The translations under genes were made by a program, and so were the position numbers. A stretch of DNA of 64,000 bases from a phage: sequence record OZ335962.1. One strand, written 5' to 3'. The first letter of the stretch is position 1, and each line of letters starts with the position of its first letter. A model generated the notes under the pieces. It was not told where the DNA came from, did not search any database, and saw only the letters and a program-made list of their open reading frames with translations. Shown here one piece after another: positions 15,956-17,022 of the stretch.

Positions 15956-16816
15956 TTATACCGCCATTTTTCCTTTAATTGGCGGGTGAGATACATAGTT
16001 TTTAAGAACAAAATCATGTGGCTTTGCAAATTGACTCAACCAAAATACCTGCGATTCTGTGTTCCATTCATCAAATTCATCTGGAAATTTTAATTGTAAT
16101 TCGCATAAATCCATAGGTTCACGACGCAAAATTTCTTTACATTGTTCTACGTGATTCATATAGATATGAGTATTACCACCAGAAAATATCAAATCTCCAG
16201 GAATAAGATTACACATCTTAGCTACAATATGAACTAACGTAGCATATGATGCAATATTAAATGGAAGACCGAGGAAAACATCTACCGAACGTTGATACCA
16301 CTGCAAATCCAAATAGCCATTACGCACATTAAATTGATAGAACATATGACAAGGTGGTAATGCCATTTGCTTGAGTTCAGCTGGATTCCATGCTGAAACA
16401 ATTTGACGTCTATCATTTGGCAGTTTTTTAATACGATCAACAACTTCTATAATTTGGTCTACACCACCAAAATCACGCCACTGTTTTCCATAAATTGGAC
16501 CAAGTTCACCGCTATGGTATCCTAAATCTTTTGCTTGATTTTCGTAATTTTCATCCCAGACTGTTTTGCCTTGAATTAATGAATCATGTTGAATTAATCG
16601 CAAATCATTGACATTTGTGCTTCCCGATAAAAACCATATTAGCTCAGCAATACAGGCTTTCCATGCTAATTTTTTAGTTGTTACCGCAGGAAAACCTTTA
16701 GTTAAATCCCAGCGTAATTTAGTACCAAACAAAGCAATTGTTCCTGTGCCTGTTCGGTCATCGGTTTCGTAACCATTTTCCAGGATATCTTTAATTAAAA
16801 ATTGGTATTGTTTCAT
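15956..16816 (-). CDS. td: thymidylate synthase, uninterrupted
   Basis: 286 aa from MKQYQ; ThyA active site PPCH and the YQRSVD motif. No group I intron. The track start is a TTG 4 codons upstream. Confidence 0.95.
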   Translation of the reverse strand: MKQYQFLIKDILENGYETDDRTGTGTIALFGTKLRWDLTKGFPAVTTKKLAWKACIAELIWFLSGSTNVNDLRLIQHDSLIQGKTVWDENYENQAKDLGYHSGELGPIYGKQWRDFGGVDQIIEVVDRIKKLPNDRRQIVSAWNPAELKQMALPPCHMFYQFNVRNGYLDLQWYQRSVDVFLGLPFNIASYATLVHIVAKMCNLIPGDLIFSGGNTHIYMNHVEQCKEILRREPMDLCELQLKFPDEFDEWNTESQVFWLSQFAKPHDFVLKNYVSHPPIKGKMAV

Positions 16817-17022
16817 TAGTTCATCCAAGAATATGTCGAAGGATATTTGGCAAAGTTAGGCTTATATCCTAATTTAACCATTTGTTTTGCTTTGCGAGTA
16901 AATCCTAAAGAACGCTCACCTTTAAGATATTGTTTTGGTGTCATAGGCCCTTGATGCATCTGCCGACAAATAAAAAGGGCCATAGCATTAGGAACATCCT
17001 TAACTTTTAATTTATTGCTCAT
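16816..17022 (-). CDS. small basic protein inserted between frd and td (68 aa)
   Basis: ATG overlaps the frd TGA (ATGA) and its TAA overlaps the td ATG (TAATG). No recognisable motif. Confidence 0.5.

Follow-up and report, generated by a model that had tools for sequence, protein, structure and literature searches.

In phage T4, the accessory open reading frame (ORF) mobE follows nrdA with a UAAUGA overlap, which has been read as translational coupling that sets the level of expression (PMC2988022). Polymorphic non-essential loci with alternative, unrelated ORFs have been described in T-even phages (Repoila et al. 1994, cited in PMC12373910), and clusters of novel ORFs are known from the same phages (PMC2993671). 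Here we analyze a 64,000-nucleotide (nt) stretch of phage DNA (sequence record OZ335962.1; referred to as the window), in which a gene for a basic protein of 68 amino acids (aa), designated ORF-B, lies between frd (dihydrofolate reductase, DHFR) and td (thymidylate synthase). The original prediction, made from the sequence alone, assumed a direct ATGA link between frd and td in T4 and proposed that a small gene had been inserted into this operon with coupling preserved on both sides. In T4 (NC_000866), frd and td indeed share 4 nt, in the sequence TATAAATGAAACAA, without an ORF between them. In the window, the frd TGA (17021-17019) overlaps the ORF-B ATG (17022-17020) in the ATGA at 17019-17022, and the ORF-B TAA (16818-16816) shares one base with the td ATG in the TAATG at 16814-16818. 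The quoted translation and both overlaps are exact in the sequence and in the ORF list. Taking all evidence together, ORF-B is probably a genuine, non-essential accessory gene residing in a polymorphic slot between frd and td. We are fairly confident of its evolutionary and structural description.

The frd-td slot was surveyed by blastn of distant relatives combined with inspection of individual records. The arrangements recovered (Table 1) indicate that the gap is a polymorphic cassette slot, which may be empty or occupied by B, A, A'+B or A+A'+B, making at least five states. A scan of IMG/VR with a close ORF-B alignment returned nine loci and no further architecture. ORF-A (RB32ORF229c; 115 aa) is unrelated to ORF-B, while A and A' are distant paralogs of each other, both belonging to phrog_1928, a family without known function. 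Aligned with T4, ORF-B corresponds to an indel of exactly 204 nt that has a copy of the 5-bp repeat AATGA at each end. For the A cassette, the repeat at the ends is the 9-bp TAAATGAAA, a direct repeat that is also recorded in the RB14 entry. In both cassettes the bounding repeat is the stop/start junction itself, so that deletion between the two copies would restore the T4 sequence exactly. Note that ORF-A of Mosigvirus SF is ATGA-coupled to frd. In RB14 (L013, 1818-2210) and T6 (L014, 1818-2229), ORF-A is followed by a 44-45-nt spacer containing TATTATAAT before td; td of these phages is therefore not coupled to the gene before it and may be served by a promoter of its own.

ORF-B was detected by tblastn in 238 phage records. 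Identity was at least 90% in 135 of these (Tequatrovirus and Dhakavirus phages of Escherichia, Shigella and Yersinia), 60-90% in 31 (T4-like phages of Klebsiella, Enterobacter and Serratia) and below 60%, at about 43%, in the remaining 72 (Phapecoctavirus, e.g. phAPEC8). Approximately 166 T4-like records in at least five lineages carry the gene. It immediately precedes td in Tequatrovirus, Dhakavirus, Marfavirus, Kanagawavirus and Serratia phage 4S, and in every T4-like carrier it directly overlaps the td start by 1 or 4 nt. Among close relatives, 135 of 573 records covered an ORF-B-containing query in megablast; T4 and about three-quarters of these relatives lack ORF-B, suggesting that it is non-essential. 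Comparison of the junction across T4-like phages thus cuts both ways for the original prediction: ORF-B is missing from T4 and most relatives, as an insertion would have it, but many relatives carry it as an annotated gene, and the slot also holds the unrelated A and A'.

Beyond the T4-like phages, other phage groups also have homologs, with 29-46% identity. Those of Phapecoctavirus and three uncultured phage contigs are surrounded by small hypothetical genes, and td is not present within 4-5 kb. No shared neighbour was found in the four contexts outside the T4-likes, where the adjacent genes belong to unrelated PHROGs, ruling out a conserved partner gene in these contexts. The family is confined to phages, and more specifically to phages of Enterobacterales; it accounts for 40 of the clusters formed at 90% identity from 5.8 billion proteins. 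An exhaustive HMMER search of 1.84 billion representatives at 50% identity recovered 10 real relatives and one spurious repeat protein (P0026). All homologs are stand-alone proteins of 66-108 aa, and neither the 64-kb window nor the 11-kb T4 region contained a paralog of ORF-B. A distant 108-aa homolog is encoded on a JGI metagenome contig (Ga0397175_00001; L008, 206-739), which also encodes a Tad2-like protein (PF11195, anti-Thoeris family) ~4 kb away and a protein of the Phage_T4_Y05C family. This suggests an accessory or anti-defence-rich region, with at most a possible link to ORF-B.

The length of ORF-B is in itself within chance expectation, since the ORF list contains several spurious ORFs of 70-80 aa. 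Its conservation, however, marks it as a real coding gene. Relative to the orthologs of Klebsiella phage Marfa and Enterobacter phage CIP9, the ratio of nonsynonymous to synonymous divergence (dN/dS) is 0.14-0.32 at a dS of ~1-1.6. The coding frame contains the terminal stop only, whereas the two alternative forward frames have 5-10 stops apiece. In hmmscan, residues 1-68 aligned to positions 1-68 of the 68-position PHROG 9550 profile (E = 1.3e-45), which was matched by all 30 aligned homologs, and protein homologs exist in unrelated phages. The N-terminal sequence MSNKLKV or MKGNKMKV is kept throughout the family, supporting the start codon that gives 68 aa. Judged by these features, ORF-B is evidently a genuine protein-coding gene under purifying selection. 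The protein is 100% identical to gp245 of phage pSs-1 (YP_009111049.1), annotated as hypothetical. ORF-B is therefore an already catalogued hypothetical gene of a family without assigned function, and not a novelty of this genome.

Annotation of the gene varies among records. JS98 (NC_010105; L012, 2501-2707), JS10 and SH7 leave it unannotated; in IME339 and Klebsiella phage EI (P0018, P0043) it is called as a 42-aa fragment starting from Met27; and Yersinia phage PYPS2T (MH809535) labels it 'flagellar biosynthesis protein'. An 8.6-kb viral contig (L024; IMGVR_UViG_2938479101_000007), whose frd and td are 97-99% identical to those of the window, matches ORF-B at 893-1097 in two frames (residues 1-32 and 16-68), representing either a frameshifted pseudogene or an assembly error.

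We compared the divergence of ORF-B with that of its neighbours. Between the window and the Dhakavirus sequences (JS98, L018 and L019), the dS of ORF-B is 0.08-0.17, in contrast to 0.5-0.85 for frd and more than 1.9 for td. The value for ORF-B is thus 5-20-fold below that of the flanking genes (binomial p from 3e-5 down to 4e-16). The block of high identity to JS98 comprises ORF-B and the first ~57 codons of td, with one divergent patch of 60 nt, and is flanked by sequence of 58-85% identity. Moreover, the flanks in the window are closer to SP1 (94.6%), a phage with the A allele, than to several phages with the B allele. The dS contrast, the identity block and the affinities of the flanks together show that alleles of the slot are exchanged by recombination, and that ORF-B with the first ~57 td codons has recently been exchanged between Tequatrovirus and Dhakavirus. 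Mutual exclusion of ORF-B and the td intron through homing-associated co-conversion was considered as well; it is ruled out by 58 records that hold both ORF-B and I-TevI.

The original prediction pointed to the preservation of coupling on both sides of ORF-B. Junction statistics obtained from 50 kb of pSs-1 annotation show that this is not remarkable: 32 of 68 same-strand junctions overlap, 23 of the 68 (34%) by 1 or 4 nt, and 10 of 63 genes have such an overlap on both sides. Thus, the double overlap of ORF-B reflects the ordinary tight gene packing of this genome. The gene has the arrangement of a coupled cistron, being on the same strand as its neighbours, with overlapping stop and start codons and no promoter or terminator in between. 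No promoter or terminator match was found inside ORF-B or at either junction; on the minus strand, the closest promoter-like match falls inside frd (17263-17235), and the region has a single terminator match, located after gene 32 (19378-19360).

Upstream of the ORF-B start is the sequence that serves td in T4, …ACGGAAUCAGU(G/A)UAUAAAUG. The sole element resembling a Shine-Dalgarno (SD) sequence here is a weak and distant GGAA at about -16, and ORF-B is accordingly most likely translated by ribosomes terminating on frd. At the 3' end of ORF-B, TGGATG is kept in Marfa, CIP9, 4S and JS98. The GGAUGA arising from this end looks like a better SD sequence for td than the one td has in T4. The initiation regions of ORF-B and td are both unstructured, with less structure than shuffled controls, ruling out an RNA hairpin that sequesters either start.

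The predicted basic character of the ORF-B protein was confirmed by its isoelectric point of 10.26, with 13 Lys and Arg residues versus 2 Asp and Glu. The conserved residues are K4, K6, P11, R20, K34, F41, M48, L51, G52, Y53 and P55, and a Lys-rich N-terminal tail is conserved in the family. An AlphaFold2 model built from the 30-sequence alignment (predicted local distance difference test score, 86) is compact, with helices at residues 13-24, 29-39 and 43-49 and an ordered aromatic C-terminal tail that packs back. Searches of Pfam, NCBIfam, PADLOC and the PDB with the single sequence and the 30-sequence profile revealed no homology to a known family, and the model had no fold match in the PDB. 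None of the 30 members matched an anti-defence or defence profile of PADLOC-DB. The sequence is absent from the supplements of the accessory-gene screen in PMC12373910, and the literature contained no mention of the ORF-B sequence, PHROG 9550, the pSs-1 accession or RB32ORF229c, general reviews providing background only.

Specific folds were also considered. A small DNA-binding protein of the Cro or Xis type was rejected, as the model has no helix-turn-helix (HTH) or winged-helix fold. A bS21-like ribosomal protein was likewise rejected: alignment of the family profile with a sequence taken as E. coli S21 by hhalign gave a probability of 0.07%, and there was no Pfam S21 or PDB ribosomal match. 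The helix-hairpin-helix (HhH) motif has the form h-x-x-h-x-G-h-G-x-x-x-A-x-x-h-h, with the hairpin between two helices. Distant members of the family contain S-F-G-V-G-F-S-K-L-A-I-R-M between helices 2 and 3, a possible lead, as it resembles this motif by eye with one residue extra; the window protein has G-F-T in place of G-h-G, and neither a Pfam HhH match nor an HhH fold match was found. Given that the protein is non-essential, restricted to Enterobacterales phages, highly constrained (more so than phage DHFR), very basic and small, we favour a binding protein. As a tentative proposal, it may act as an accessory factor that binds nucleic acid or a conserved acidic partner of host or phage origin. 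We rank this above a role tied to thymidylate synthase (Td), the remnant of a homing endonuclease and a non-coding spacer, which are weighed below together with the possibility of a recent insertion.

If the ATGA coupling of frd and td were ancestral and ORF-B a recent newcomer inserted in this lineage, the lack of the gene in T4 and most close relatives, the exact AATGA-flanked indel and the very low dS between Tequatrovirus and Dhakavirus, a sign of recent lateral movement, would all be expected. However, a single deletion between the AATGA copies explains the T4 sequence equally well, and it is distant genera that have the most complete slot, A+A'+B. In five or more lineages ORF-B adjoins td, and across genera its synonymous sites are saturated (dS ~1-1.6) and its protein identity is 60-81%, compared to 33-46% for Frd and 73-84% for Td. 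Since this divergence tracks that of the neighbours at saturated dS, ORF-B has co-diverged with frd and td and is no newcomer to the T4-like phages, making a recent first arrival improbable. The adjacency of ORF-B and td is old, and the direct frd-td coupling of T4 is as likely to be a loss as to be the ancestral state. The proposal of a small gene inserted into the operon thus holds on a short timescale, as seen in the 204-nt indel relative to T4 and the low dS relative to Dhakavirus, but fails on a long one, where ORF-B is an old resident of at least five lineages. A function of the 204 nt solely as an RNA or spacer element, with ORF-B untranslated, might be read from the lack of annotation in JS98, JS10 and SH7. 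We consider this hardly credible in view of a dN/dS well under 1 at saturated dS, a frame that is open where the others are interrupted, homologs that share 29-46% protein identity without detectable DNA similarity, and an RNA that is less structured than shuffled controls.

The original prediction described the neighbourhood as one of thymidylate and folate metabolism. With a function in this pathway, ORF-B might serve Td or the deoxynucleoside triphosphate (dNTP)-synthetase complex as a small subunit, a chaperone or a regulator, produced at a fixed ratio to Td via translational coupling. Its invariable position immediately upstream of and overlapping td in T4-like carriers, a conservation nearer to that of Td than of Frd, and the inclusion of the Td N-terminus in the exchanged block are consistent with such a link. 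The link is not supported, however, because the Phapecoctavirus and uncultured-contig homologs have neither td within 4-5 kb nor a shared neighbour. Moreover, T4 Td, 97% identical over exon 1, works without ORF-B, carriers and non-carriers are interleaved among close relatives, and the Td N-terminal residues common to the window and JS98 are not found in other carriers. A Td-linked role is thus rather unlikely. ORF-B might also have decayed from a selfish element, for instance as what is left of the DNA-binding domain in a free-standing homing endonuclease of the I-TevI, mobE or segG kind. The T4 region is rich in homing endonuclease genes that overlap their neighbours (PMC2988022), and ORF-B is basic, helical and patchily distributed. 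This origin is nevertheless very improbable: none of the 30 members matches GIY-YIG, HNH or any further Pfam family, structural comparison gave no hit to HTH domains or to the DNA-binding domains of endonucleases, the homologs are all full-length stand-alone proteins under purifying selection, and the presence of ORF-B is independent of the td intron.

Returning to the accessory-gene account, we propose the following. The presence and absence of ORF-B would be shuffled by homologous recombination in frd and td, and gain or loss could also occur by deletion or insertion at the repeated stop/start junction (AATGA for B, TAAATGAAA for A). With the junction repeat as the indel boundary, the overlapping stop and start codons that are standard in this genome would be recreated automatically. 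ORF-B would be carried in a long delayed-early/middle transcript for nucleotide metabolism, inheriting the weak initiation region that serves td in T4 and being started by ribosomes terminating on frd, while its 3' end would supply the SD-like GGAUGA to td. The product would be a host-specific accessory factor of Enterobacterales phages, rather than an enzyme or an obligatory partner in the synthesis of thymidine monophosphate.

The window is a Tequatrovirus segment, matched by Shigella phages Sf21 and vB_SsoM_113 at 96-98% over 14 kb; pSs-1 and sb2 are ~98% identical to it around the frd-td locus. The features of the locus and the arrangements of the slot are collected in Table 1. T4 td is split by the I-TevI intron, whereas td of the window is uninterrupted.

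Table 1. Positions of features in the window and gene arrangements recorded at the frd-td slot.
Feature	Position	Strand	Description
nrdA	13134-15398	minus	
Two small ORFs	between td and nrdA	minus	
td (thymidylate synthase)	15956-16816	minus	286 aa, contiguous, intron-less; ATG at 16816-16814; downstream gene
3' junction AATGA	16813-16817	minus	inside the TAATGA of ORF-B stop/td start; direct-repeat copy 2
GGAUGAAC, with SD-like GGAUGA	16819-16825	minus	5-10 nt upstream of the td AUG; conserved Trp-Met codons of the ORF-B C-terminus
ORF-B (68-aa basic protein, PHROG 9550)	16816-17022, stop codon included	minus	from ORF list and sequence
Recent recombination tract	16644-17022	minus	~97-98% nt identity to Dhakavirus JS98; from sliding identity and dS contrast
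5' junction AATGA	17019-17023	minus	frd TGA and ORF-B ATG; direct-repeat copy 1 (5 bp)
frd (dihydrofolate reductase)	17019-17603	minus	194 aa; upstream gene; 86.6% aa identity to T4 Frd (tblastn)
Small frd.x ORFs	between gene 32 and frd	minus	
Gene 32	19401-20309	minus	
frd-td (empty)			T4, SG1, vB_EcoM_112, Bp7, VR5
frd-B-td			this window, pSs-1, JS98, two IMG/VR Dhakavirus-like contigs
frd-A-td			T2, T6, RB14, Shfl2, Mosigvirus SF
frd-A'-B-td			Marfa, Serratia 4S
frd-A-A'-B-td			Kanagawavirus CIP9, two IMG/VR contigs (L021, L022)

The window also differs from T4 elsewhere in this region. All selfish elements of the T4 region are absent (window positions 11904-13082, 13134-15398, 15956-16816 and 20309-20409): nrdB (392 aa) is contiguous, without intron or I-TevIII; the nrdA-nrdB gap is 51 nt and lacks mobE; there is no segG between genes 32 and 59; and td lacks the intron with I-TevI. 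On the other side of frd, a very acidic 85-aa ORF (phrog_3183; 17603-17860, minus strand) overlaps the frd start by 1 nt. It is present in pSs-1, RB14 (RB14ncORF233c) and T6, while T4 has a 71-nt gap between frd.1 and frd instead, and thus represents a second presence/absence cassette. Between frd.1 and this ORF lies a 119-aa ORF (phrog_3566; 17845-18204, minus strand), which occurs in T6 but neither in T4 nor in pSs-1, although the latter is otherwise ~98% identical to the window. At this position, therefore, the window differs from its closest relatives.

ORF-B does not change the understanding of frd-td expression in T4-like phages. The textbook frd-td coupling of T4 is, however, just one of at least five allelic states, and the locus offers a clean natural case of cassette gain and loss at overlapping stop and start codons within a core operon, in which a recent exchange between genera can be measured. 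The ORF-B product has an orphan fold and is well conserved, more strongly so than phage DHFR. Going further, ORF-B could found an orphan-fold family directed at a specific target in Enterobacterales infection (a nucleic-acid structure, the translation or replication machinery, or a defence system), with the frd-td junction exemplifying a general route of cassette gain and loss at coupled boundaries through A-rich stop/start microhomology. We regard this extended proposal as a long shot.

How does ORF-B compare with the described systems? With PHROG 9550, as represented by pSs-1 gp245 and the T4-like orthologs, there is no difference; it is the same gene in the same position between frd and td. 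Like ORF-B, mobE is a non-essential ORF between two genes of nucleotide metabolism that overlaps the stop codon of the upstream gene (PMC2988022). In contrast to mobE, ORF-B lacks an endonuclease domain and gives no indication of self-mobility, and it overlaps the downstream gene too. ORF-A of T2, T6, RB14, RB32 and Mosigvirus SF shares with ORF-B the insertion point between the frd stop and the td start and the direct repeat at the junction, but differs in that the spacer of T6 and RB14, with its TATAAT-like sequence, uncouples td. The polymorphic loci of T-even phages (PMC2993671; PMC12373910) likewise hold alternative cassettes at one site in close relatives, shuffled with respect to the flanks. 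Those loci, as far as these accounts describe them, are the ip genes and the 40-75 kb hyperplastic region, elsewhere in the genome, whereas the frd-td slot lies inside a core nucleotide-metabolism operon and, unlike the T-even loci described there, has cassettes bounded by the duplicated stop/start junction itself.
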